From Candidatus Daviesbacteria bacterium (GTDB taxonomy: Bacteria; Patescibacteriota; Microgenomatia; Daviesbacterales; UBA10151), in NCBI GenBank assembly GCA_016187025.1, contig JACPKM010000004.1, forward strand, positions 163,637 through 227,636: 64,000 bases of DNA. The letters are read 5' to 3'. Made by a program: the position numbers and the translations under genes. The notes under the pieces are model-generated. The model searched no databases and was not told where the DNA came from. It saw only the letters and a list, made by a program, of their open reading frames with translations. This document shows positions 24,619 to 59,897 of this stretch, piece after piece (positions within the stretch are counted from its first letter, which is position 1; every line of letters starts with the position of its first letter).

Positions 24619-25635
24619 ATGAAATTCTCCAGCACTTACATAGTTACTCTTGGTTCACACTCTGCTTTACAAATTTTAAAAGGAGCAAAGGATGAAGGTT
24701 TTAAAACAGCAGTGGTTTGTACTCCTAAACAAACAACTCTCTATAGAAACTATGATAAATTTATAGACGAGATAATCCAGATAGATTCTTGGGCTTCTTT
24801 TCCTCAAATGGAAAAAAGACTAATAAAGCAAAATTCCATCATTGTTCCACACGGGTCATTTGTAGCGTATTTGGGAATGGAAAGAAACAAACAAATGAGA
24901 GTACCGTATTTTGGAAACAAACTTGTTTTGGATTGGGAATCAAATAGAAAAATGCAAAGAGAATGGATGATAGCAGCAGATGTCAAGGTTCCTCACAAGT
25001 TTAAAAAGGGAGATAAAATTGATCGTCCTGTGATAGTTAAGTCTCATGGAGCCCAAGGTGGAAAAGGATATTTTGTTGCCAAAAATCAAAAAGAACTGGA
25101 TGAAAAATTGAAAGTTTTTAGTGAAGAAAAATTTATAGTACAAGAGTATGTTATCGGTGTGCCAGTGTATATACATTTTTTTTATTCTCCACTAACAGAA
25201 AAATTAGAAGTGATGAGTGTTGATAAGAGATATGAGACAAATGTTGATTCATTGGGCCGAATTCCAGCCAGGAACCAAAAAGGATTAAAAATAGAGCCTA
25301 CCTTTGAGGTGGTAGCAAATATTCCAATGGCCATAAGGGAATCAATGTTGGCAGAAGCAATGGCAATGGGTGATAGAGTAATAAATGTTTCTAAAAAACT
25401 GGTTCCACCAAAAGGATTATTTGGTCCTTTTTGTCTGGAAACAATTATCACCTCAACTGATGAAATTTATGTAATGGAAATTTCAGCAAGAATTGTTGCC
25501 GGAACAAACTGTTTTATTGACGGTTCCCCTTATACATATTTGCTTTATGATGAACCAATGAGCACCGGAAGACGGATTGCCCGGGAAATAAAGTTGGCAA
25601 TAAAGAAGAAAAGATTAAAGGAAGTATTAGACTAA
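24619..25635 (+). CDS. purP: Archaeal-type FAICAR synthetase (formate-dependent AICAR formylating ATP-grasp), paralog 1
   Basis: N-terminus TLGSHSALQILKGAKDEGF and overall length match PurP. Confidence 0.65.
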   Translation: MKFSSTYIVTLGSHSALQILKGAKDEGFKTAVVCTPKQTTLYRNYDKFIDEIIQIDSWASFPQMEKRLIKQNSIIVPHGSFVAYLGMERNKQMRVPYFGNKLVLDWESNRKMQREWMIAADVKVPHKFKKGDKIDRPVIVKSHGAQGGKGYFVAKNQKELDEKLKVFSEEKFIVQEYVIGVPVYIHFFYSPLTEKLEVMSVDKRYETNVDSLGRIPARNQKGLKIEPTFEVVANIPMAIRESMLAEAMAMGDRVINVSKKLVPPKGLFGPFCLETIITSTDEIYVMEISARIVAGTNCFIDGSPYTYLLYDEPMSTGRRIAREIKLAIKKKRLKEVLD

Positions 25636-25638
25636 ATC

Positions 25639-26733
25639 ATGAATAATCAATCACTTACCATTGCAGTACTAGGGTCTCATTCCGCTCTGGATGTTTGCCG
25701 GGGAGCAAAAGATTTAGGATTTAACACCTTAGTTATTTGCGAGAAAGGAAAAGAAAAAACTTATCAGAAGTTTTATAGATCCCAAGATGAGTTAGGTTGT
25801 GTTGACGGAGTGCTAGTTTTAGAAAAATTTGCAGATATATTAAAACCAGCTGTCCAGGAAGAACTAAGAAAAAGAAATTGCATATTTATTCCTCATAGAT
25901 CATTTGAAGTCTATTTAAACTTTGATTACAAAGCAATTGAGGAAAAATTTAAAGTGCCAATTTTTGGAAATAAATTCTTACTAAAAATTGAAGAGCGGGG
26001 AGTGAAACCTAATCAATACGACCTTTTAGAAAAAGCCAAAATAAGGATACCCAAGCAATTTAGCGATCCTAAAAAAATAGATAGATTGTGTATTATCAAA
26101 GTCCTAGAAAAAGAAAGAGGTTTTGAAAGAGCCTTCTTTTTGTGTGACTCTTATAAAGAGTATCAAAAGCAAGTAGAAGAAAAATTAGATAAAGGAATTT
26201 TTACTAAAGAACAATTAGATAAATGTGTAATTGAGGAATTTATGATCGGTGTACAAGTAAACTTAAATTATTTTTTCTCTCCAGTAGATAAAAGATTAGA
26301 GCTTCTAGGGACAGATACCAGAAGGCAAACCAATATTGAAGGATTAATTAAAACACCTGCTCCTTATCAGCAATCAATCATGGAAAAAGTAAATATAAAA
26401 TACGAGGAAGCAGGACATATTGCTGTGACAGTCTTGGAATCAATGCTTGAGCAAATTTTTGAGTTAGGGGAAAGATTTGTTAGAGTTTCTCAAAAGTTAA
26501 TACCACCTGGAGTGATTGGCCCTTTTGCCCTGCAAGCAGTAATTGTTCCAGGCCCTCCCAAAAAAGATATTATTGTTTTTGATGTTTCGCCAAGAATGCC
26601 GGGTAGTCCCGGAACTTTTGCTACACCATATAGTGGGTATTTATTTAGGCAAAATATCTCTGTTGGAAAAAGAGTTGCAATGGAAATTAAGAATGCTTTA
26701 GAAAAGAATAATTTAGAAAAAATTACAACATGA
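25639..26733 (+). CDS. PurP-family ATP-grasp protein, paralog 2
   Basis: AVLGSHSALDVCRGAKDLGF is a paralog of the upstream gene. Confidence 0.6.
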   Translation: MNNQSLTIAVLGSHSALDVCRGAKDLGFNTLVICEKGKEKTYQKFYRSQDELGCVDGVLVLEKFADILKPAVQEELRKRNCIFIPHRSFEVYLNFDYKAIEEKFKVPIFGNKFLLKIEERGVKPNQYDLLEKAKIRIPKQFSDPKKIDRLCIIKVLEKERGFERAFFLCDSYKEYQKQVEEKLDKGIFTKEQLDKCVIEEFMIGVQVNLNYFFSPVDKRLELLGTDTRRQTNIEGLIKTPAPYQQSIMEKVNIKYEEAGHIAVTVLESMLEQIFELGERFVRVSQKLIPPGVIGPFALQAVIVPGPPKKDIIVFDVSPRMPGSPGTFATPYSGYLFRQNISVGKRVAMEIKNALEKNNLEKITT

Positions 26734-33081: not shown

Positions 33082-33888
33082 TGAACTACCCCGCAGCAGA
33101 GCTGCGAGGTATCGCAAGCGAAAGTTCTTGTTACCAAGTTGTAACCGCGCAGTAAACTGCTCGGTATTATGTAACAATAAATACTTTTTTAGCTTCAAAG
33201 AAAAAATTTACAAACAATCTAACGATAGAGGAGTAGGGTGTGAAAATTCAGTAAGAATATCGTGAAAATAAAATACTATGAGACTTTCGCGTACCAAGAA
33301 ACTTTTTACTCCTGTGTGGATAACTTATTGCTTAAAAATTTGCACTAGATTGATATAGTTGCTAATTGCAGGCCCCGCTCCCCGGAGGAGAGGGCTAATA
33401 ATACTTCCTAATTTACACTAACCTAAAAGGAAAGAAGCTTGTAAGCTTTGTTATTTTGGTCTTTTCCTGAAATATACTCCTTTCTGCTAGGCCACCCAGA
33501 CTTACCTATATATTAACGTCGTACAATGTATCTTATACGACGTTCAGAAAGGATTTGCCAGAGGAGAGGTTATGTGGTTAAGCTAAGAGTTACTAATGCA
33601 AAATTTAAAATTTTTAACATGTATTTTTAATGCCTAATTTTAGCTGCAATTCTTCCATTTTTTTACTGATGATTTTTTTACAATGTCCGCTTTTTTACTA
33701 AATATCTTAGTTTTTACTTTGGCGCTCTATAGAGCGCTAAACTTGGATGATGGTAGATACTGCTAGTCCCCTAATCAACCGTTTTTGAGGCCTTTACGGG
33801 CTTCGTGCCTGAGAGGTCTCTTGATGTCGGACAATATTAACCATCTATTGACAAACTACTATTAAAAGTGTCAATCTGAAGTCAAGCT
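33082..33888. other. Unusually long (~800 bp) gene-free interval rich in palindromes/hairpins
   Basis: No ORF has coding character. It contains the perfect 16-bp palindrome gcgctctatagagcgc (33722..33737), a 9-bp-stem hairpin aacgtcgta...tacgacgtt (33515..33544), aagcttgtaagctt, cgcagc-aga-gctgcg, and TTGACA...tgtcaa just before the ATG at 33889. Confidence 0.4.
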
Positions 33889-36735
33889 ATGTTTGACAAT
33901 CTAAGAGATAGTTTTTCAAAGAAAAACCTAATTAATCTATTGCTTCTTGGTATTTTAGTTCTGGCTGTTCCCCTATCTGTGGATCTGGTAAGACGCCAAC
34001 AGGTATTTAAGTCATTTGCACTGGGTGAATCAATAGAGCTTTTGTCCAATAAGTGCGTAAAAACAAGAGATGGAAAGCAAGTAGTTGTTTGCCCGGAGAT
34101 ATCCTTTAAGATTACTCCTCCCAGGGAATTTTTAGCAAGCAATAATTCCCTAAGTAAAAGTTTAGCCTTAAATCAAAGTATTCTTGGCACGGTTTATGCT
34201 GGCCATCCGGAAGGGACAGAAGGATGGTATTGTGCAGATAATCAGATTTGGCATGATAAAGCTGATGGAAACCATGAGTTCTGGGAAGATTGTGGGTCAG
34301 ACAAGGAGTGTGTTAGTATTTCTCCTCCACCTGGTTATTCTCAAGACGCAGAGTGTCGAATAAGGCAACAAGAACCAGAGCAGCAAGAATCTCAGCCACG
34401 AGAGCCTCAATGTGAATGGAGAGATTTACGAAACGAATGCACAGCCTGTAATGAGGCAAGAAAAATAGAAAAAAAAGTTTGTGATGGAAATGACACCGGA
34501 GAAACAAGAATTGCCCAAGAAGGTGTAAGCGATTCTGGATGTAGTAGCTGGTGTTCAAATCAACCAGAGCAAGAGCAGCAGCCAAGTGGAGGTACAGGTC
34601 CGCAGTGGTGTTCTGGGTATGTGCAAGACTGCTGGGAAGATGTAAATGGAGATGGTATTGAGGAAAGAGGTACTCAATGGTGCTCTGGAGGGGTAAATGA
34701 GGGAGGAAACTGCGCTTGGGATCCTCAAGTCACTACTTGTGGTGTTTGCGAAATAATAGACACTTCCTCTGGACAGACCTACTCACCAGGAGGCCAGTCA
34801 CAGCAGCAATGTAACGGTGATGTAACTGTTGATACTCTCGCTCCGACAGGAGTGGATTATTTAGTTAGCGAAAAAATCGTTACTAATGAAAAAGATGGTA
34901 CAAGATATAAGGCCTACACTACAGAAGACAAACGAAATAATAAAACTTGTGGTTATGAATATTTCCAATATATTTCCACTCTGAGCGATGGCAAATACTG
35001 TGCAAATTACGTTTTTGGCCCGTGGGATAATCAGCAGGTTTGTAAAGATGTTGCTGTTCCTCCGGCTCCAGATTCATCAGGTTGTACCACTGGTTCTGCA
35101 GGATCTATTACCCAACAACAGGCAGAGTGTGTAATTGGAAAAAGAAGTGATTTACTTTCATTTTTTAGAAATAATGGTTGGTGTACTGATAAGAAAGAAA
35201 ATTATCAGGGAATAGTTAATAACTGGATGGGTATAAATACCCAGAATGATAAAGATCAAGTTGCAAGCTGCCTAGGGTCAACACCATCTTCTTGCACAAC
35301 AGGGTCTGCAGGAACAGTTACTCTAGAACAGGCAAAATGTGTGTTAGGCAAAAGAAGTGATATTTTAACTTTTTACAGATCTAATAGTTGGTGTACTGAT
35401 AAAGAGGACAACTACCCAGGAATTATAAACAACTGGATGGGTATTAACAACCAAAATGATAAAAATCAGGTTGCAAGCTGCTTTAGTCAACCCTCATCTA
35501 CTTGTTCCATCAAGTTACAAAGGAGCGGTACTTCCGGTTGGAGCCAAGCACTTACTGTAAAAGTGAACGATCGAGTTAAAATAGCTGCTTTAAACTCATT
35601 AGATCAAGCTATCCCGGGCGTAAATCTTAGTGTTTCCGGTCCAAATAATTTCTCAAGAAGCTTGTCAAATCAGCAAGAATTGACGCTTTCTACGCAAGGG
35701 ACATATAGTATAACTGCCAGAGGTGGTAGTTGTGACAGCGCCAGTGCTGCAACGCTGACTGTTTCTCCTTCAGACCAGTCAGATACTCAAATTGAGTTTA
35801 GAATTGCAGAAGAAAGAGCGGATTTAAGCAAGCAAAACTTTATTAAAATTCCTGCTGGCCGACAACATGAAGTGATAAACCATACTTTAGCCAACACAAC
35901 TCCTGGTAAAAAGTTTATGTGGGTAGAGTTTAAAAAAGGCGACCAGTTTTCCTCCCCTATCTCTGCCGAAATAGAATATGTTGGACCTGCGCCTCAAATT
36001 GACACTTTGTCATGTAATCTAGATATAGCTGGTAAGGGTTTGGTGTTTGAAATAGAGGGTAATAACTTTAGTGCAAATCAAGGTCGTTTAACTGCAAATA
36101 ATACACAAGTTACAATTACTGAATGGATTCATAATAAGATTAAAGGTAATATAGAAAATCCTTCCTTCTCCCCTACTGCCGGGCAATCTTATCAAGTAGT
36201 TGTTACTAGAAACGATGGTGAGAGTTTCCAGCAAAACTGTCTAATTGGTATTTCGCAAATTATTCTTGGAGTAAAACCTGTTTGTGTAGCCCCCAACAGA
36301 AACATTGCCAATGTGGAAGTAGCCATTAAAGAGGCAAGTGCAAGTGGAAATGCAGTACGGGAAACAGTTGAAATAGATAAAGAGGGAGTTATTAAAAACT
36401 TAAAGACTAAACTACAAGGCCCAACCGATGGAAAGCCCGGTAAAAGATATAAAATATCTGTAAAAGCTCCTCAATACCTAAGACGTCATGGTTTATTTAC
36501 TGCAGCTAGCGGTACAACAGTTCTACCTGGCCTTAGTTTACCATGGGGGGATATCTGTCCTACCAGCGGAGATGGTATTATAAATAGTATAGATAAGTCT
36601 TGTCTCAACCAACAATGGGGTAAGGTTGCTTCGACAGCCAAGGTTTGCGACTGTAATGGCGATGGAGTTTGCAATGCTTTTGAATGGGGTTATATGAAAC
36701 TTAATTTTAACGATGTAAATGATGCTGAATTATAA
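33889..36735 (+). CDS. Large (948 aa) secreted/anchored Cys-rich protein with internal tandem repeats and C-terminal dockerin-like module
   Basis: N-terminal signal anchor LINLLLLGILVLAVPL. It is cysteine-rich, with paired QWCSG motifs. The C-terminus PTSGDGIINSIDKSCL...DCNGDGVCNAFEWGYM resembles the duplicated Ca-binding loop plus helix of type-I dockerins. Confidence 0.55.
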   Translation: MFDNLRDSFSKKNLINLLLLGILVLAVPLSVDLVRRQQVFKSFALGESIELLSNKCVKTRDGKQVVVCPEISFKITPPREFLASNNSLSKSLALNQSILGTVYAGHPEGTEGWYCADNQIWHDKADGNHEFWEDCGSDKECVSISPPPGYSQDAECRIRQQEPEQQESQPREPQCEWRDLRNECTACNEARKIEKKVCDGNDTGETRIAQEGVSDSGCSSWCSNQPEQEQQPSGGTGPQWCSGYVQDCWEDVNGDGIEERGTQWCSGGVNEGGNCAWDPQVTTCGVCEIIDTSSGQTYSPGGQSQQQCNGDVTVDTLAPTGVDYLVSEKIVTNEKDGTRYKAYTTEDKRNNKTCGYEYFQYISTLSDGKYCANYVFGPWDNQQVCKDVAVPPAPDSSGCTTGSAGSITQQQAECVIGKRSDLLSFFRNNGWCTDKKENYQGIVNNWMGINTQNDKDQVASCLGSTPSSCTTGSAGTVTLEQAKCVLGKRSDILTFYRSNSWCTDKEDNYPGIINNWMGINNQNDKNQVASCFSQPSSTCSIKLQRSGTSGWSQALTVKVNDRVKIAALNSLDQAIPGVNLSVSGPNNFSRSLSNQQELTLSTQGTYSITARGGSCDSASAATLTVSPSDQSDTQIEFRIAEERADLSKQNFIKIPAGRQHEVINHTLANTTPGKKFMWVEFKKGDQFSSPISAEIEYVGPAPQIDTLSCNLDIAGKGLVFEIEGNNFSANQGRLTANNTQVTITEWIHNKIKGNIENPSFSPTAGQSYQVVVTRNDGESFQQNCLIGISQIILGVKPVCVAPNRNIANVEVAIKEASASGNAVRETVEIDKEGVIKNLKTKLQGPTDGKPGKRYKISVKAPQYLRRHGLFTAASGTTVLPGLSLPWGDICPTSGDGIINSIDKSCLNQQWGKVASTAKVCDCNGDGVCNAFEWGYMKLNFNDVNDAEL
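35083..35481 (+). repeat. Intragenic tandem duplication (2 copies, ~189 bp each, period ~210 bp) encoding a ~63-aa Cys module
   Basis: Copy 1 (35083..35271) and copy 2 (35293..35481) both begin tg(t/c)ac.ac.gg.tctgcagga and end gttgcaagctgc. Protein repeat: C-TTGSAG-x-T-xxQA-x-C-V-x-GKRSD-x-L-xF-x-R-xN-xWCTDK-xx-NY-xGI-xNNWMGIN-xQNDK-xQVASC. Confidence 0.8.
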
Positions 36736-36825
36736 CGTAAACGTTACAAGAAGTTTACGATGTAATCTAAACGATTATAACGTAAACGTTACAAGAAGTT
36801 TACGATGTAATCTAAACGATTATAA
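36736..36825. repeat. Perfect 45-bp x2 intergenic tandem direct repeat
   Basis: cgtaaacgttacaagaagtttacgatgtaatctaaacgattataa occurs twice back-to-back, at 36736..36780 and 36781..36825. The unit end ttataa is also present at 36730..36735. Each unit holds a 7-bp inverted repeat cgtaaac/gtttacg. Confidence 0.9.
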
Positions 36826-36827
36826 CT

Positions 36828-37463
36828 ATGGATAGTCCTGCCAACAACCAATTAGTAAACAACACATATTTTGAGGGGTCAAAATCTAGATTCAGACTGT
36901 TTAGAATAAAGTTATGGCCTTTTGGGGTATATGCAGTATTGGGACTGGTTCTTCTGGTTGAAATTGTATTAGGTATACAACAGTTAATTAAACCTCCCCC
37001 CTCACTACAGCCCTCGCAGCCTATTTCAGGTGGTAAGATTGCCCTTGTATCCTCTGCAAAAGAATATAAGCTGGGAGATGAGGTAACAGTTTCTGTTAAA
37101 GTATCTACCTCAGGTAATCCGACATATGGGGTAGATTTAGTTGTTATTTACGATCCCAAGGTCCTTGAAGCAACCTCCAGTTCTTTTTTTGAAAAGGGCA
37201 CAATTTATTCAGAATACCCTTTAGCAAGCTTGGATACACAAAATGGAGTTATTAAGGTTTCAGGTATTGCTTCAGGCAATCAAAAAGGTTTTAATGGAAG
37301 TGGGACCCTTGCAAGTTTAAAGTTTAAGGCCAAATCAGCAGGCAATACAACACTGAAGGTAGATTATAAAAAAGATGCGACAAATGAAAGTAATATAATT
37401 GAATCAACTGAGGCCAAAGATATCTTAGACAAGACTTATGACCTGAAATTAACCGTTAAATGA
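36828..37463 (+). CDS. Membrane-anchored cohesin-like domain protein
   Basis: N-terminal TM anchor. The following ~140-aa beta-rich domain (KLGDEVTVSVKVSTSG...VDLVVIYDPKVLEA...GSGTLASLKFKAKSAGNTTLKVDY) matches the cohesin type-I pattern (V.V.V.....G..LAxIxFKAK.AG...L). Confidence 0.5.
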   Translation: MDSPANNQLVNNTYFEGSKSRFRLFRIKLWPFGVYAVLGLVLLVEIVLGIQQLIKPPPSLQPSQPISGGKIALVSSAKEYKLGDEVTVSVKVSTSGNPTYGVDLVVIYDPKVLEATSSSFFEKGTIYSEYPLASLDTQNGVIKVSGIASGNQKGFNGSGTLASLKFKAKSAGNTTLKVDYKKDATNESNIIESTEAKDILDKTYDLKLTVK

Positions 37464-38191
37464 CTATGAAAAAAATCATTTCCATTTTCATCTTAACTTC
37501 TGTCTTTTTAATTTTACCGCTACCTGTTTTTGCAGCTACTCTTTCTTTGTCCCCTTCCACCGGTAATTTTAACAAAGGCTGTGATGTTACAGTTGATATA
37601 AACTTAAACACAGAAGGAGTGCAAACAGATGGGACAGATGCAATTGTTTTATATGACTCTTCACGCTTAACCGCTAATCAGATTGTTTCCGGCCAAATCT
37701 ATTCAGATTATCCTGGAAATAATATCGATGAGCAGTCGGGCAAGATAACTATTTCAGGTTTATCATCTGTAAGCAGTGCCTTTTCCGGTAGTGGCACTTT
37801 TGCAAAAATTAACTTTACTGTTAAAGATAATGCTTCGGTAGGGGTAACGCAAGTAAAATTTGATTTTGACTCAAATGATAAATCCAAAACTACAGATTCT
37901 AATGTGGTTGAAAGAGGTACTGTAGCAGATGTATTAAGCTCAGTAGTAAATGGAAATTATACTATTGGTTCCGGTGCCTGCACTGTTCAAGGAAGCCCTC
38001 CGACTATTGTAGTTACCCCTCCTGTTTCTCAAGGCGGGATCTCTACTCCATCAGGAGCAGTAAAAACTCCTGTCAAAACAATAGATGATATGGTGGGTGG
38101 TAAAACCGGCTCTCAGGAATTTAGTTATATGCTGGCAATACTTGGGGTAACAATGGCAGTACTGGGAGTGTTAGGGTTTGCTCTTCTTTAA
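37460..38191 (+). CDS. Secreted cohesin-like domain protein with C-terminal TM anchor
   Basis: Signal peptide ends ...LPVFA-ATL. Cohesin-like core LSLSPSTG...CDVTVDINL...DAIVLYDSSRL...GSGTFAKINFTVKDNASVGVTQVKFDF. C-terminal hydrophobic helix MLAILGVTMAVLGVLGFALL. ATGA overlap with the upstream gene. Confidence 0.5.
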   Translation: MTMKKIISIFILTSVFLILPLPVFAATLSLSPSTGNFNKGCDVTVDINLNTEGVQTDGTDAIVLYDSSRLTANQIVSGQIYSDYPGNNIDEQSGKITISGLSSVSSAFSGSGTFAKINFTVKDNASVGVTQVKFDFDSNDKSKTTDSNVVERGTVADVLSSVVNGNYTIGSGACTVQGSPPTIVVTPPVSQGGISTPSGAVKTPVKTIDDMVGGKTGSQEFSYMLAILGVTMAVLGVLGFALL

Positions 38192-39255: not shown

Positions 39256-40398
39256 ATGGTAGAAACAGGAAACAGCAGTGATTTTAAAATCACAGTAAAT
39301 AATTCACCAAATTCCCCGGGACTGTTAGAGGGAGCATACCTATTGGAACTGGAGGTTGGTGGTAATATTTCGAGTCATCCAACTGTGCAAAGGGTTGCCC
39401 GGGTGGTGGCAGGGATGGGTTATATGATGAGATGGGCTGAGTTGATGTCGGGTTTGGCTGCTGCTGTACTCCCGGAAAATCCCAAAGATTTATTGGATTT
39501 ACGGCAAAGAGCGCATGGTTTAATGATTGATACTGATAGGGGTATCGGATATGCTAGGCAACTCACTCGGGAGGCAGAGTCGCTTGTTGAAGCTGATAAC
39601 TCATCAGAATCCGATTTAGCTGAACCTGAAGCATTACTTGATAAGGTAAAAGCTTTCGGAAGTTTTATAGTTCCTATGTGGGTGCATGATATGAATAACC
39701 ATTTAACAGCAGCTAGTGGTATGGTGTATTGCATGCACAAAAATCCGGCAAGGTTGGAATATCCTAATTTCCGCGAGAGTATCATCGATTCTTTTTCCCT
39801 TATCCACAAAGAGCTATTACAAGAGGCGTTAAACCAAGATCCTGCGCTTTATTCTTTAAAATTCACTTCTTTATCTAGACTGAGTATGCTGATTAATATC
39901 GTACTTAGCACAGTACGTAAAAACAGTATGCAAAATATAAGGGCTGTTAACTCTGAATTTACCAACCTTCCCCAAGAGATCATATTAAGAGGTGATGTTT
40001 ACTTACTATATCAACTACTAAAACAGTGTGCAGGCAATAGTGCCAAGCAGGCTCGTTTCAAAGGCGAGAGTTACCCAACAGAGTTCGGTATAACCACCCA
40101 ACTGGCTGCAGATGGGAATACAGCTATTATGTATTGTGATGATAATGGTTCAGGGTATAGTAAGTTAATGATAGAAAAGGGGTTTATAGGTGCGTTAAGA
40201 GAGAGACAGGCTGGTAATATTCAGGCTCAAGGGTACAGGGATAATCGTGTACCAACCACTGGTTTTGCGATGGCAATGTTGACAGAGAAAGCTGAAAGAG
40301 CAGGGATTAAGGTCGAGCCTGCCAGGCGGACAGATAAAAACGGAAAAGTCATACCTGGCGCTAGAACAGCTATTTATGTGCCTGTTTTATCTAATTAA
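39256..40398 (+). CDS. Orphan soluble histidine kinase-like protein (unknown N-terminal domain, DHp, GHKL ATPase)
   Basis: H-box HDMNNHLTAASG, N-box LLKQCAGNSAKQA, D-box DDNGSGY, G-box TTGFAMAM. No TM helices. Local GC is visibly above the neighbours. Confidence 0.5.
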   Translation: MVETGNSSDFKITVNNSPNSPGLLEGAYLLELEVGGNISSHPTVQRVARVVAGMGYMMRWAELMSGLAAAVLPENPKDLLDLRQRAHGLMIDTDRGIGYARQLTREAESLVEADNSSESDLAEPEALLDKVKAFGSFIVPMWVHDMNNHLTAASGMVYCMHKNPARLEYPNFRESIIDSFSLIHKELLQEALNQDPALYSLKFTSLSRLSMLINIVLSTVRKNSMQNIRAVNSEFTNLPQEIILRGDVYLLYQLLKQCAGNSAKQARFKGESYPTEFGITTQLAADGNTAIMYCDDNGSGYSKLMIEKGFIGALRERQAGNIQAQGYRDNRVPTTGFAMAMLTEKAERAGIKVEPARRTDKNGKVIPGARTAIYVPVLSN

Positions 40399-55875: not shown

Positions 55876-55910
55876 GAAAATAGGTCCTGTTGAATGCAGG
55901 AAATTTGATT

Positions 55911-57629
55911 ATGCTTGATACTACTGCCCAAAAAAATGGTAATACTAGTTTGGAAGATATTTTATTTGAACAGGGATTGCTAACTAAAGACCAGCTGGCC
56001 ACTCTTAAGTTAGAAAGCATTAATTCCGGTCAGCCAGTAGAAAAGATTTTAATCCAGCATAACTTAGTTCCCTATGAAAAGATTATTCAAGCTAAGGCTC
56101 AGCTTTGGAACATTCCCTATGTGAGGCTAGAGGGTAAAGCGATTGCATCTGATGCTTTAAATTTAATACCAGAAGGAGTAGCAAGAAAAAATAAATTAAT
56201 TCCCTTTGGGCGCAGCAACGATCAGTTGTGGGTGGCAATGGCAGATCCACTGGATGTTCAAGTAATTCAGTTTATTGAGAAAAAAAGCGGAATGAGGATA
56301 AAGCCTTTTTTAGGTCTGCCCGAAGATATTGTAAAAGCAATTAATGATCAGTACTCACAAAGCTTAACATCGGATGTAACTTCGGCTTTAAAAGAAGTGG
56401 CCTCAGTGAGACAAGACATACAAACAGAGTTAACTCCGGAAGTAATTAGAGAAGCTCCGGTTTCCAATATTGTTAATCAGTTGGTGGAATATGCAGTAAA
56501 AACCAGGTCATCAGATATTCATATTGAACCCATGGAAGATCATACAAGAGTAAGATACAGAATTGACGGTATCTTACACGAGAAGATTCTTCTTCCCCGG
56601 GGGGTTCATGATGCTTTAGTTTCTAGGGTAAAAATCTTGGCTATATTAAAAATAGATGAAAAAAGACTTCCTCAAGACGGAAGGTTTACTTTTAACTATG
56701 GTAAAGAAGTGATAGATTTGCGTATTTCCATTATACCAACTGTGTTTGGTGAGAAAGTAGTCATGAGGTTATTACCCAAATCCAGCGCTGCTCCGACCCT
56801 AATTGAGCTGGGGCTGCGGGGCTCCTCCTTAAAAAGCTTTGAGGTTCAACTTTTAAGAACCCATGGTATTATCTTAGTCTGTGGTCCGACCGGTTCAGGT
56901 AAAACTACTACTCTTTATTCGGTTTTATCAAAAGTATCTACTACCAAAGTAAATGTTTTGACAATTGAGGATCCAGTTGAGTATCAGATTCCAGGCGTTA
57001 ACCAGGTCCAGGTTAATCCGCCTATCGGACTTACATTTGCTGCAGCTTTAAGAAGTTTTTTACGGCAAGACCCAAATACCATAATGGTTGGAGAGATCCG
57101 GGATACTGAAACAGCTGAGTTGGCTGTTCAGGCAGCATTGACCGGCCACCAGGTATTTTCAACAGTCCACACTAACTCAGCATCAGGAGCTGCCCCAAGA
57201 CTTTTGGATATGGGTGTAGAAACATTTTTACTTACCTCAGCATTAAATGCAGTGTTAGGGCAGCGGGTTGTAAGACAGGTTTGTCTTCATTGCCGTATTG
57301 CGTATGATCCACCCCAGGAAGTTGTTGAAAACGTTAAGTCATCATTGGGCCAGCTATTTCCCGTTAAAAGTGCGGATAACTTTAAGCTTTATAAGGGCCA
57401 GGGATGTAAAGAATGTAATAATGTTGGTTATTTGGGAAGAATTGGGATATTTGAGGTGTTGGTGGTAACTGATAAGTTAGCAAAGCTGATACTACAGCAT
57501 TCCTCAGCATCAGAGATAGAAAAAGAGGCTATTTCAGAGGGTATGATTACAATGAAACAGGATGGTTACTTAAAAGCCCTGGAAGGTATAACCACACTTG
57601 AGGAGGTATTAAGAGTTGCGCAGGATTAA
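55911..57629 (+). CDS. pilB: Type IV pilus assembly ATPase (GspE/PilB family)
   Basis: N-terminal GSPII_E_N-like domain, Walker A GPTGSGKTT, and tetracysteine CLHC...CKEC. I prefer the ATG at 55911, preceded by AGGAA 8 nt upstream, over the listed TTG at 55890. Confidence 0.8.
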   Translation: MLDTTAQKNGNTSLEDILFEQGLLTKDQLATLKLESINSGQPVEKILIQHNLVPYEKIIQAKAQLWNIPYVRLEGKAIASDALNLIPEGVARKNKLIPFGRSNDQLWVAMADPLDVQVIQFIEKKSGMRIKPFLGLPEDIVKAINDQYSQSLTSDVTSALKEVASVRQDIQTELTPEVIREAPVSNIVNQLVEYAVKTRSSDIHIEPMEDHTRVRYRIDGILHEKILLPRGVHDALVSRVKILAILKIDEKRLPQDGRFTFNYGKEVIDLRISIIPTVFGEKVVMRLLPKSSAAPTLIELGLRGSSLKSFEVQLLRTHGIILVCGPTGSGKTTTLYSVLSKVSTTKVNVLTIEDPVEYQIPGVNQVQVNPPIGLTFAAALRSFLRQDPNTIMVGEIRDTETAELAVQAALTGHQVFSTVHTNSASGAAPRLLDMGVETFLLTSALNAVLGQRVVRQVCLHCRIAYDPPQEVVENVKSSLGQLFPVKSADNFKLYKGQGCKECNNVGYLGRIGIFEVLVVTDKLAKLILQHSSASEIEKEAISEGMITMKQDGYLKALEGITTLEEVLRVAQD

Positions 57630-57632
57630 GCT

Positions 57633-58685
57633 ATGATTATATCTCAGCTACTGGAACTAACGATTGCTAGAAATGCCTCTGACTTGCATCTTTCAGTGGG
57701 TTTTCAACCTACCCTCAGGATACATGGAGACCTTGTTCCTATTCAGGGTACAGAGCCAATTACTCCATCTGTAATAGAGAGCTTGATAATCCCACTTTTA
57801 AACAAAGTGCAACTGGATATATTCAACGAGAAATGGGAGCTTGATTTTTCTTATGCTTTAGGAGATAAGGGTAGATTTAGGATTAATTTATACCGTCAAA
57901 AAGGTAATGCTGCTGCAGCTTTAAGGCTTATTCCTGCTAGAATTCCTCCTTTGGAAGAGTTGGGGTTTCCTGATGTGGTTGCAAAGTTGTCTGATCTTAG
58001 GCAGGGCTTTGTACTTGTAACCGGCCCTACAGGGCATGGAAAGTCCACTACTTTGGCCTCTCTAATAAACAAAATTAACCTAAACCGGGCTGCACATATT
58101 GTAACTATTGAAGATCCAATTGAGTATGTATACCCCATGGGTAAATCTTTGCTGGAACAAAGAGAGATGTTTCTGGATACCAAAAGCTGGAATAATTCTT
58201 TAAGAGCGCTGCTCCGGGAAGATCCGGATGTGGTATTGGTTGGTGAGATGAGGGATTTGGAGACTATTTCTTCAGCTATAACCGTAGCAGAAACCGGACA
58301 TTTGGTTTTTGCCACCCTGCATACAAACTCTGCTGCCCAATCTGTTGACAGGGTGATTGATGTATTTCCGGAAGCACAACAACCGCAAATACGCTTACAG
58401 CTGGCATCAAACCTGGAAGCAATCATCTCTTTAAGGCTTGTACCAACAATTAATCCAGGCAGGACAATTGCCAATGAGATACTTTTTGCCACCCCTGCTG
58501 TAAGAAATATCATCAGAGAGGGAAAAACTTATATGATTGACAATTTAATTCAAACCTCAGCAGAGTTAGGAATGATTTCTTTGGAAAGCTCTTTGGCCAA
58601 CTTAGTCAAAACAGGAAAAATTTCCACTGAGACTGCAACATCTTTTGCGCTGCGTCCTGATGTGTTAGCTAAATTACTCAAATAA
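57633..58685 (+). CDS. pilT: Twitching-motility retraction ATPase
   Basis: LVTGPTGHGKSTT, and 350 aa without an N-terminal extension. Confidence 0.85.
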   Translation: MIISQLLELTIARNASDLHLSVGFQPTLRIHGDLVPIQGTEPITPSVIESLIIPLLNKVQLDIFNEKWELDFSYALGDKGRFRINLYRQKGNAAAALRLIPARIPPLEELGFPDVVAKLSDLRQGFVLVTGPTGHGKSTTLASLINKINLNRAAHIVTIEDPIEYVYPMGKSLLEQREMFLDTKSWNNSLRALLREDPDVVLVGEMRDLETISSAITVAETGHLVFATLHTNSAAQSVDRVIDVFPEAQQPQIRLQLASNLEAIISLRLVPTINPGRTIANEILFATPAVRNIIREGKTYMIDNLIQTSAELGMISLESSLANLVKTGKISTETATSFALRPDVLAKLLK

Positions 58686-58694
58686 CTTATTTAT

Positions 58695-59897
58695 ATGGCT
58701 GAATATACATATAAAGCAAAGGATTTAAAAGGGGTTGAGCATATTGGTGAGATAAAGGCTTCTGACCAGCATATGGCAGCATTGGTCCTTCGTAAGAGAG
58801 GCTTGGTTGTAATCACTCTTTCATCCGGTAAAACGTCTACACTGGGTTTTTTAGATCAATTCTTTAACAAAGTGAGTTTTACGGAGTTAGTGGTAATGAC
58901 CAGGCAGCTTGCTACGATGGTAAGTTCAGGATTGGTACTGTCACAAGCAATAGATATATTAGAAGAACAGCAAACAAATAAAAGATTAAAAAAAATTCTG
59001 GGGGAGATGTCTCAAGACATTAAAGGAGGGTTAAGTTTGGCTCAATCTATGGGTAAATTCCCGGAAGTTTTTCCACACTTGTATATAAATTTAATCAAAA
59101 GCGGAGAAACATCCGGAAAACTGGATAAAGTTTTGATGCAAATGGCTGATGGTTTGGAGAAGGACCGTGAGTTTAAAGCCAGGATCAAGGGGGCGCTAAT
59201 TTATCCGGTGATAGTTATTTCGATGATGGTTGTAGTAATGATTATTATGATGGTGTTTGTTATCCCCAGGTTAACAAATTTGTATGAGCAGTCGGAGATG
59301 GAGTTGCCTTTGCCAACTAAAATACTAATTGGGGTATCTAACCTTTTTCTTAATTACTGGTGGTTGATGATAGCTATAGTTATCGGTGGTGTGATTGGAA
59401 TAAACCGCTGGTCAAAAACCCCTGATGGGCAGGTTAGGTTAGACAGTCTCAAATTAAAGATTCCGGTTGCAGGAAAAATTATTGCCTATTCTATTTTGAC
59501 CAACTTTAACCGGACTTTTGGGCTGTTAGTTTCTGCCGGTATTCCTTTACTTGAGGCTATTGGAATAGTTACAGAACAAATTGATAATTCAGTGTATAAA
59601 ACTTCTCTTAAAAATGCCTATAAAGGGGTTGAAAGAGGCCTTGCTTTTTCATCCTTACTACAGGATAACGTTTTCCCCCGCCTTATCCCGCAGATGATCA
59701 AAGTTGGTGAAGAAACAGGTAAAGTGGATGAAATTTTTTTCAAACTGGCTGATTATTTTGAATCAGAAACAGACCATTTGGTAAAAAATCTGACAGTTGC
59801 AATTGAACCGGTAGTATTGGTAATTTTGGGAATTGGAGTAGGATTTGTGGTGATGTCTATTATCTTGCCTATCTACAAATTGACTACATCTTTTTAA
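58695..59897 (+). CDS. pilC: Type IV pilus inner-membrane platform protein (GspF/PilC family)
   Basis: Duplicated GspF domains, 3 TM helices, 400 aa. Confidence 0.85.
   Translation: MAEYTYKAKDLKGVEHIGEIKASDQHMAALVLRKRGLVVITLSSGKTSTLGFLDQFFNKVSFTELVVMTRQLATMVSSGLVLSQAIDILEEQQTNKRLKKILGEMSQDIKGGLSLAQSMGKFPEVFPHLYINLIKSGETSGKLDKVLMQMADGLEKDREFKARIKGALIYPVIVISMMVVVMIIMMVFVIPRLTNLYEQSEMELPLPTKILIGVSNLFLNYWWLMIAIVIGGVIGINRWSKTPDGQVRLDSLKLKIPVAGKIIAYSILTNFNRTFGLLVSAGIPLLEAIGIVTEQIDNSVYKTSLKNAYKGVERGLAFSSLLQDNVFPRLIPQMIKVGEETGKVDEIFFKLADYFESETDHLVKNLTVAIEPVVLVILGIGVGFVVMSIILPIYKLTTSF

Follow-up and report, generated by a model that had tools for sequence, protein, structure and literature searches.

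CttA, a non-catalytic adhesin of Ruminococcus flavefaciens, uses its dockerin to bind ScaE, a sortase-anchored single-cohesin protein encoded in the same gene cluster (PMC5301203). ScaE is made of a signal peptide, one cohesin and a C-terminal sorting signal, and the dockerin of CttA-XDoc carries insertions compared with canonical dockerins (PMC5301203; PMC12484212). By mechanism, CttA-XDoc/ScaE is the closest known counterpart of a three-gene locus in a 64,000-nucleotide stretch of Candidatus Daviesbacteria DNA (hereafter the window), taken from contig JACPKM010000004.1 of 300,714 bp. The locus encodes a 948-aa protein that ends in a dockerin, called here the cargo, and two anchored proteins with cohesin domains, called cohesin A and cohesin B. 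These genes probably form a non-cellulosomal cohesin-dockerin surface-display cassette conserved across Candidatus Daviesbacteria, in which the dockerin of the cargo would bind the cohesins. A non-cellulosomal surface display had already been proposed from the DNA letters alone (the sequence-only reading), and the proposal is supported by the lack of any carbohydrate-active enzyme (CAZyme) among the annotated window ORFs (open reading frames) and by the presence of a cohesin gene directly 3′ of the dockerin ORF in 42 of 42 informative loci.

Both systems comprise a surface protein ending in a stalk module and a dockerin, a single-cohesin anchor protein, a shared gene cluster and insertions in the dockerin. 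They differ in that the Daviesbacteria cassette is devoid of cellulosome, scaffoldin, carbohydrate-binding module (CBM) and CAZyme, has two paralogous single-cohesin anchors of opposite predicted topology instead of one, uses a cohesin B terminal signal of the type LPx(A/G/S)G or GxxxG without a basic tail (GGKTG in the window), and has a dockerin with an atypical first Ca-loop. Moreover, Daviesbacteria belong to the candidate phyla radiation (CPR, or Patescibacteria), with a genome of ~1.1 Mb, as found in close relatives, and here the cassette is lineage-wide and the head of the cargo hypervariable. A cellulosome is recognized by dockerin-bearing CAZymes together with a multi-cohesin scaffoldin carrying a CBM. 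Here each cohesin protein has a single cohesin domain, and glycoside hydrolase, carbohydrate esterase, polysaccharide lyase or CBM domains were found neither in the three cassette proteins nor in the annotated ORFs of the window.

Cohesin and dockerin modules also exist in organisms that do not degrade cellulose, as exemplified by the Archaeoglobus fulgidus cohesin 2xdh and the cohesin-like module 2jh2 of Clostridium perfringens, both of which are matched by the predicted structure of cohesin A (Foldseek, E 5.2e-8 and 7.9e-7, respectively). Those are isolated modules within larger multi-domain proteins, whereas the three genes of the present locus form a dedicated cassette found throughout the lineage, whose single cohesins are tethered to the membrane and whose cargo can be exchanged. 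Within the CPR, the Saccharibacterium Southlakia epibionticum possesses an essential dockerin-domain envelope protein, SEML1_0315, for which its authors speculate on the targeting of host-cell glycans (PMC10633639). The resemblance, considered by description and not by sequence, lies in a dockerin-bearing envelope protein in a CPR epibiont; the organism belongs to another CPR class, and neither a cohesin partner nor a cassette is described. No published description of the Daviesbacteria dockerin-cohesin cassette was found in the literature. Non-cellulosomal cohesins and dockerins are thus already known in general, and what appears new is a dedicated, lineage-wide and enzyme-free cassette in a CPR bacterium.

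How CPR bacteria recognize and hold their partners is largely unknown beyond type IV pili. Conserved, compact and amenable to experiment, the cassette is a candidate for a surface-display or adhesion system in these organisms, and it would extend the cohesin-dockerin principle to dedicated enzyme-free anchoring in an ultra-small bacterium. It adds a divergent type of dockerin, with an insertion in loop 1, and an unclassified ~65-aa domain that also occurs on secreted M23 wall hydrolases. The three modules are small and soluble, their binding is testable with recombinant proteins, and the diversity of the cargos could be set against ecology or host range. Should the pair prove to be tight-binding and orthogonal to those already known, it could serve as a connector in synthetic biology.

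Modules of the three-gene cassette

The genes and their modules are arranged as follows:

33889..36735, + strand: cargo gene, 948-aa exported protein (ORF list; 100% identity to HYW42_04260)
33913..33996, + strand: N-terminal leader of the cargo (hydrophobic aa ~9-36), then the conserved motif LVRxQQ(I/V)xKS(R/F)A (hydropathy scan; conserved among family members)
35080..35493, + strand: two tandem ~65-aa Cys-framed helical domains, aa 398-465 and 468-535, with the core C..C(V/I)..R(S/P)DIL.FY..NGW...(I/V)(V/I)NNW(M/C)GI(N/D)
35986..36537, + strand: stalk, aa ~700-883, an IPT/TIG-like domain and a transthyretin/CarboxypepD_reg-like beta domain directly before the dockerin (alignment with relatives P0002 and P0004)
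36538..36732, + strand: dockerin module, aa 884-948, LPWGD-I-(CPT)-SGDGIINSID...QW...DCNGDGVCNAFEWGYM (Pfam sub-threshold; family profile against PDB)
36828..37463, + strand: cohesin A, 211 aa, with a transmembrane signal-anchor (aa ~24-56), a ~12-aa linker and a cohesin domain (aa 69-210) (Pfam, AlphaFold2/Foldseek, family profile)
37460..38191, + strand: cohesin B, 243 aa, with a signal peptide (...PVFA/AT), a cohesin domain (aa ~27-170), a P/T/G-rich linker, GGKTG (aa 213-217) and a helix (aa 220-243) (Pfam, hhalign)

The three ORFs, their coordinates, the 4-nt ATGA overlap between the last two and the motifs quoted in the sequence-only reading all agree with the ORF list. Cargo and cohesin A are identical to the hypothetical proteins HYW42_04260 and HYW42_04265 (100% in each case), both from the same Candidatus Daviesbacteria metagenome-assembled genome (MAG). 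The overlapping genes of cohesins A and B are probably co-translated.

Judged from its family profile, the C-terminal ~65 aa of the cargo is a divergent type-I-like dockerin. Dockerins consist of two tandem segments of ~22 residues, each formed of a 12-residue EF-hand-like Ca2+ loop, D-x-[DN]-x-D-G-x-[IV]-N-x-x-[DE], and a helix. The second loop of the window protein is canonical (DCNGDGVCNAFE, D-C-N-G-D-G-V-C-N-A-F-E), while the first reads D-I-(CPT)-S-G-D-G-I-I-N-S-I-D, in which three inserted residues, one of them Pro, separate positions 2 and 3. The two successive Ca-loops described earlier are therefore regular in the second case and interrupted in the first. Most orthologues also have a 3-4-residue xPxx insertion in loop 1, which is uninterrupted only at loci L007 and L015. 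Dockerin_1 (PF00404) is the best Pfam match of the cargo, with 17.5 bits over the full length and 21.8 bits when the tail is taken by itself, both below the gathering cut-off of 22.9 bits, which is passed by the orthologous tails of P0002 (26.2 bits) and P0015 (23.9 bits). Because the window tail is sub-threshold, a family profile was tested instead of the single sequence. This profile, built from ten orthologous tails and searched against all PDB sequences, has as best matches 4fl4_A (E 1.6e-9), CelS (2mte/1daq, 5e-8) and 2y3n_B (5.6e-7); about 26 of its 30 PDB matches are dockerins or dockerin-containing proteins, and the alignments with PDB dockerins have both Ca-loops in register. The related large proteins end in a tail of the form LPxGD(I/L)xP..DGxINxxD...QW...D(F/L/C)NxDGxxNSx(D/E)WxCM...(D/E)PE. 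The early assignment of a dockerin thus holds at the level of the family profile and of two orthologues that pass Pfam, with the window tail itself falling short of the cut-off.

The two ~140-aa domains encoded downstream are cohesins according to hidden Markov models (HMMs), and cohesin A also according to its predicted fold, as the sequence-only reading had anticipated. With a Pfam cut-off of 24.1 bits, Cohesin (PF00963) scores 43.0 bits on cohesin A and 37.1 bits on cohesin B, and it is present in 10 of 10 homologues of cohesin A. An AlphaFold2 model of cohesin A, based on 10 homologues, predicts a transmembrane helix (aa 23-54) and a beta-sandwich of 12 short strands (aa 69-210), with a mean confidence (pLDDT) of 75.6 overall and mostly 80-94 in the domain. 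When this model is compared with the PDB by Foldseek, the top 49 matches are all cohesins, the best being 5k39_A (E 9.5e-9), with a probability of 1.00 and a target-normalised TM-score of up to 0.72. Among them are cellulosomal cohesins of types I, II and III as well as 2xdh, which is non-cellulosomal. The model of cohesin A thus agrees with the nine-stranded jelly-roll sandwich of solved cohesins. The cohesin A family profile matches the PDB cohesins 3l8q and 5g5d. Cohesin B is a paralogue of cohesin A (hhalign 99.7%, E 1.8e-26), and its own family profile reaches PDB cohesins weakly (E ~0.01).

Hydropathy gives cohesin A an N-terminal transmembrane helix and cohesin B a signal peptide plus a C-terminal hydrophobic helix, as proposed before, so that the two proteins are predicted to have opposite membrane topologies. 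In cohesin A the signal-anchor is conserved and only ~12 residues separate the helix from the domain; in cohesin B the spacer is ~45 aa long and rich in P, T and G. The earlier view of the cohesin B C-terminus as a plain membrane anchor has to be qualified, since this region (window 38096-38188) resembles a sortase sorting signal without basic tail. It is strongly conserved. Half of the orthologues (19/38) have LPx(A/G/S)G, most often LPPAGSEQLT, and the other 19, including the window protein with GGKTG, read GxxxG. In every cohesin B a hydrophobic helix follows that ends exactly in ...LGILGLALL-COOH (...LGFALL in the window), and a basic tail is found in 0 of 38. The LPXTG_anchor model TIGR01167 scores 14.3 on these C-termini, below its cut-off of 15.9, no curated NCBIfam sorting-signal model is matched above threshold, and no sortase gene is found within the window ORFs. 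Given the sub-threshold score and the lack of a sortase in the window, a simple transmembrane anchor and covalent attachment to the wall are equally possible for cohesin B. Taken together, the leader, transmembrane and signal features support export and membrane anchoring.

Conservation of the cassette and exchange of its cargo

A word-index homology search returned only three partial relatives for the whole 948-aa cargo and none for its C-terminal 319 aa, which is why HMM-based searches of fetched loci were used instead. Loci were collected by three routes, namely exact homologue look-ups, an alignment of cohesin A against species-representative genomes, and an alignment of the dockerin alone against metagenomes. 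Local HMMs of all three modules (the dockerin and both cohesins) served to map them. This yielded 47 non-redundant dockerins, with downstream sequence at 42 loci. In 40 of these 42, the gene order is cohesin A then cohesin B, and the cassette was found in every related genome sampled. The family member P0003, which has no dockerin, was considered as a negative control and proved uninformative, since its contig ends one gene after it.

The N-terminal part of the cargo is remodelled from locus to locus (about 500-1280 aa, with differing domains), while the stalk, the dockerin and both cohesins stay. Two tandem dockerin-bearing genes precede a single cohesin pair at L026/L028, L043 and L055. Divergence is unequal along the locus, the mean pairwise identity being 73% for the neighbouring Xer-type recombinase, 61% for cohesin B, 50% for the dockerin, 46% for cohesin A and 38% for the stalk. 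That the cassette diverges faster than Xer fits a fast-evolving surface system.

Between the DUF5656 gene and the cohesin genes lies a slot with one to five consecutive genes for leader-bearing surface proteins of very different lengths (L003 1156-7956; L013 6321-9878; L016 4148-9690; L010 3929-9924; L018 4015-6788). Several genomes have a second tyrosine-recombinase gene at the upstream edge of this slot, so that the variable array is bracketed by two recombinase genes. The N-termini of the surface proteins (window 33889-34170; L003, L007, L010, L011, L013, L016 and L018) share the leader KKNLxNLLLLGILxxAxPLxVxLV(R/Q)xQQIxKS(R/K)A, after which comes a conserved segment of ~45 aa. The leader of the cargo may be a signal peptide or a signal-anchor. 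Its motif lies ~13 residues past the hydrophobic core, beyond the distance usual for cleavage by signal peptidase I; the leader-bearing surface proteins may therefore undergo a processing or sorting step of their own.

In the display cassette as proposed here, the cargo would leave the cell by Sec export, and its dockerin would dock in a Ca2+-dependent manner on one or both membrane-tethered cohesins, which would keep a stalk-and-head protein of ~900 aa on the cell surface. The dockerin, the stalk and the two cohesins would be the constant part, and the N-terminal cargo would be exchangeable between strains and species, giving variants of 500-1280 aa with differing domains and one or two tandem dockerin genes per cohesin pair. 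With their different tethers, the two cohesins may offer docking at two heights or with two specificities, and the variable head would contact an external ligand.

A bolder version of this mechanism is speculative and, although possible, on balance doubtful. It holds that the cassette is a constant docking station that sets partner or host specificity throughout the Daviesbacteria lineage. A recombination-prone slot, located downstream of a conserved ~100-nt non-coding element and in many genomes flanked on both sides by a tyrosine-recombinase gene, would gather and swap one to five leader-bearing surface-protein genes, and the dockerin-bearing products would mount on a two-tier cohesin pair, one membrane-proximal and the other wall-linked or distal. 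CPR cells would then possess an exchangeable repertoire of adhesins made of cellulosome parts. No convincing inverted repeats flank the cargo gene in the window, as might mark a shufflon or invertible element behind the variability of the cargo, and the idea of such an element is retained solely within this version.

Nature of the cargo and proposed pairing of the modules

From its N-terminus, the cargo is composed of a hydrophobic leader, a Cys-rich variable region, two ~65-aa helical repeats, an Ig/TIG-like stalk and the C-terminal dockerin. It had been described as giant and Cys-rich. The second adjective is apt for its N-terminal half, in which its 40 Cys residues (4.2%) are enriched; the first is not, at 948 aa. 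In the stalk, a weak transthyretin-type match is seen at aa 790-867, and the TIG domain (PF01833) is found in P0004. The position of the stalk resembles that of an X-module.

The ~65-aa repeat domain has neither a Pfam model nor a PDB relative and occurs in only 29 clusters among 1.84 billion representatives. Beyond the Daviesbacteria-type proteins, it forms C-terminal tandem arrays on proteins with Peptidase_M23, 3D, SH3_3, LysM and M4 domains (P0016, P0018, P0020, P0030, P0032, P0026 and P0038). As to taxonomy, one of the clusters comes from a Spirochaetales MAG, and one is annotated MepM/NlpD. The repeat may be a new wall-targeting module. Given its association elsewhere with secreted M23 endopeptidases and with LysM, 3D and SH3b proteins, the window cargo is most likely not an enzyme but an adhesin that binds cell wall or glycans, for instance in contacts with a host or partner cell. 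Attachment to a host, which the sequence-only reading suggested, would be one possibility.

The same associations are compatible with an explanation in which the cohesin-dockerin pairing is real and the cargo binds the peptidoglycan or S-layer of its own cell, thus tying membrane to wall. The other proteins bearing the repeat act on the bacterial wall, possibly their own, cohesin A sits a mere dozen residues (~12) from the membrane, and presence in every related genome sampled is what would be expected of a core envelope component. However, the heads of the cargos vary extremely in length and domains between close relatives, most being without the repeat, and the cassette proteins diverge much faster than the neighbouring Xer. 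Hypervariable heads and fast divergence are typical of outward-facing proteins and not of a conserved self-structure, and we consider such an internal staple unlikely.

Several observations weigh against a display cassette with an adhesin as cargo. The dockerin of the window is below the Pfam cut-off, and its loop 1 does not have the canonical D1/N3 geometry. The putative wall-binding role of the repeat domain is deduced from domain co-occurrence, its fold has no characterized relative, and the repeat is missing from most cargos of related loci, so that no single cargo function can be put forward for the whole family. Furthermore, all loci come from one lineage with a broadly conserved gene order (RuvC, DUF5656, gap, cassette, Xer, P-type ATPase, gyrA), and inherited synteny thus contributes to the adjacency seen in 42 of 42 loci. 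Lastly, a Mantel test of dockerin/cohesin co-divergence over nine taxa is not significant (r 0.27, p 0.08), nor are partial Mantel tests of the dockerin against cohesin A or B on the same number of taxa, controlling for Xer or stalk (p 0.12-0.36), and these tests thus give no direct evolutionary evidence of a contact between dockerin and cohesin. A Spearman coefficient of 0.52 for co-divergence was set aside, its pairs being non-independent.

Outside cellulosomes, dockerins that lack a cognate cohesin are common. The modules of this locus might likewise not pair with each other: the tail would be an orphan module for Ca binding or stability or would bind a partner from another locus, the cohesin-like proteins would be generic immunoglobulin-like surface proteins, and their adjacency would be inherited. 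A degenerate loop 1, non-significant co-divergence and a wider synteny common to all loci are what this explanation can claim. It has to face an adjacency that persists through replacement of the cargo, tandem duplication of the unit, inversion of a flanking gene and fusion. Dockerin-gene and cohesin-gene units have been duplicated together in L010 and L047, and in L044 and L056 the trio is intact next to an inverted Xer gene. A single ORF of 1178 aa (L046 229-3762; L047 3244-6777) combines a dockerin (aa 916-986) with a cohesin-B-type domain (aa 1024-1178, 114 bits). About one-third of the dockerin proteins extend 140-240 aa past the dockerin, and some of these extensions give weak cohesin-like matches. 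In addition, the window contains exactly one dockerin and exactly two cohesins, side by side, and no other within its 64 kb. Cargo remodelling, joint duplication, tandem dockerin genes, Xer inversion and the fusion ORF point to a functional coupling beyond inherited synteny, making modules that ignore each other improbable.

A miniature enzyme display in the manner of a cellulosome or amylosome, with an unrecognized hydrolase as cargo (for instance one degrading the wall of a host), is very hard to credit, for although the repeat domain elsewhere accompanies M23 and M4 peptidases and the N-terminal ~300 aa of the cargo have no Pfam annotation, this region is low in complexity and rich in Cys, Gln and Glu, neither Pfam nor NCBIfam detects a catalytic domain in the window cargo or its dockerin-bearing relatives, and a glycoside hydrolase, whose absence the sequence-only reading had rightly noted, is not found among the annotated ORFs of the window.

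Neighbouring genes and non-coding elements

The surroundings of the cassette in the window are of the housekeeping type, with genes for purine synthesis, RuvC, a DUF5656 membrane protein, an Xer-type tyrosine recombinase, a P-type ATPase, gyrA/gyrB and Mur ligases. Pilus-type genes encoding a T2SSE ATPase with an MshEN domain, a PilT-like ATPase and a T2SSF platform protein (PilB/PilT/PilC-like) are located at 55890-59897. They had been placed next to the cassette in the sequence-only reading, a statement that does not hold, as they lie 17.7 kb downstream of it, past the unrelated P-type ATPase, gyrA/gyrB and Mur ligase genes. For want of proximity, the idea that the cassette and type IV pili are functionally tied was rejected.

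In the window genome, a repeat fills the stretch that separates the cargo gene from that of cohesin A:

36729..36818, + strand: perfect 45-nt tandem duplication (RNA fold -26.3 kcal/mol, z -4.5)

It begins in the last codons of the cargo, stops 10 nt short of the start codon of cohesin A and is predicted to form stable hairpins. The duplication is specific to the window genome, the related loci having 0-45 nt at this place. Two independent short-read contigs with the cargo gene (L001 and L002) stop ~22 nt past the stop codon, within the 45-nt repeat.

Upstream, the ORF-free gap at 33082-33888, downstream of the DUF5656 gene, contains a conserved non-coding element of ~100 nt (33718-33825). The element is single-copy within the window and present in every related locus examined (L003, L007, L011, L013, L014, L016 and L018), with 34 of 120 columns invariant and a core TCCCCTnAAAAGCCGTTTTTGGGGC..TTTACGGGCCTCGTGCCTG. 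In its 5′ hairpin, three pairs are kept through double changes. Rfam scans of the window, of four related loci and, in sensitive mode, of the upstream gap gave no credible family. In several relatives an extra tyrosine-recombinase gene, and not the cargo gene, comes after the element.

Three further observations concern single loci or genes. Locus L010 (CAYLXC010000020.1), labelled 'uncultured Gammaproteobacteria bacterium', carries two Daviesbacteria-type cassettes with the typical leader, and its bin assignment is probably wrong. At 24619-26733, two tandem paralogous genes, each with DUF1246 and DUF1297, are found within an otherwise bacterial-type purine gene cluster; this is an ATP-grasp family that we take to be the archaeal-type PurP of purine synthesis. 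Immediately following Xer, a 380-aa ORF without Pfam match (39256-40398) shows motifs, spotted by eye, that are similar to an N-box (GNSAKQA) and a G1-box (DDNGSGY), which suggests a divergent ATPase domain of the histidine-kinase type; in relatives L003-L008, its position is taken by a small holin-like gene.

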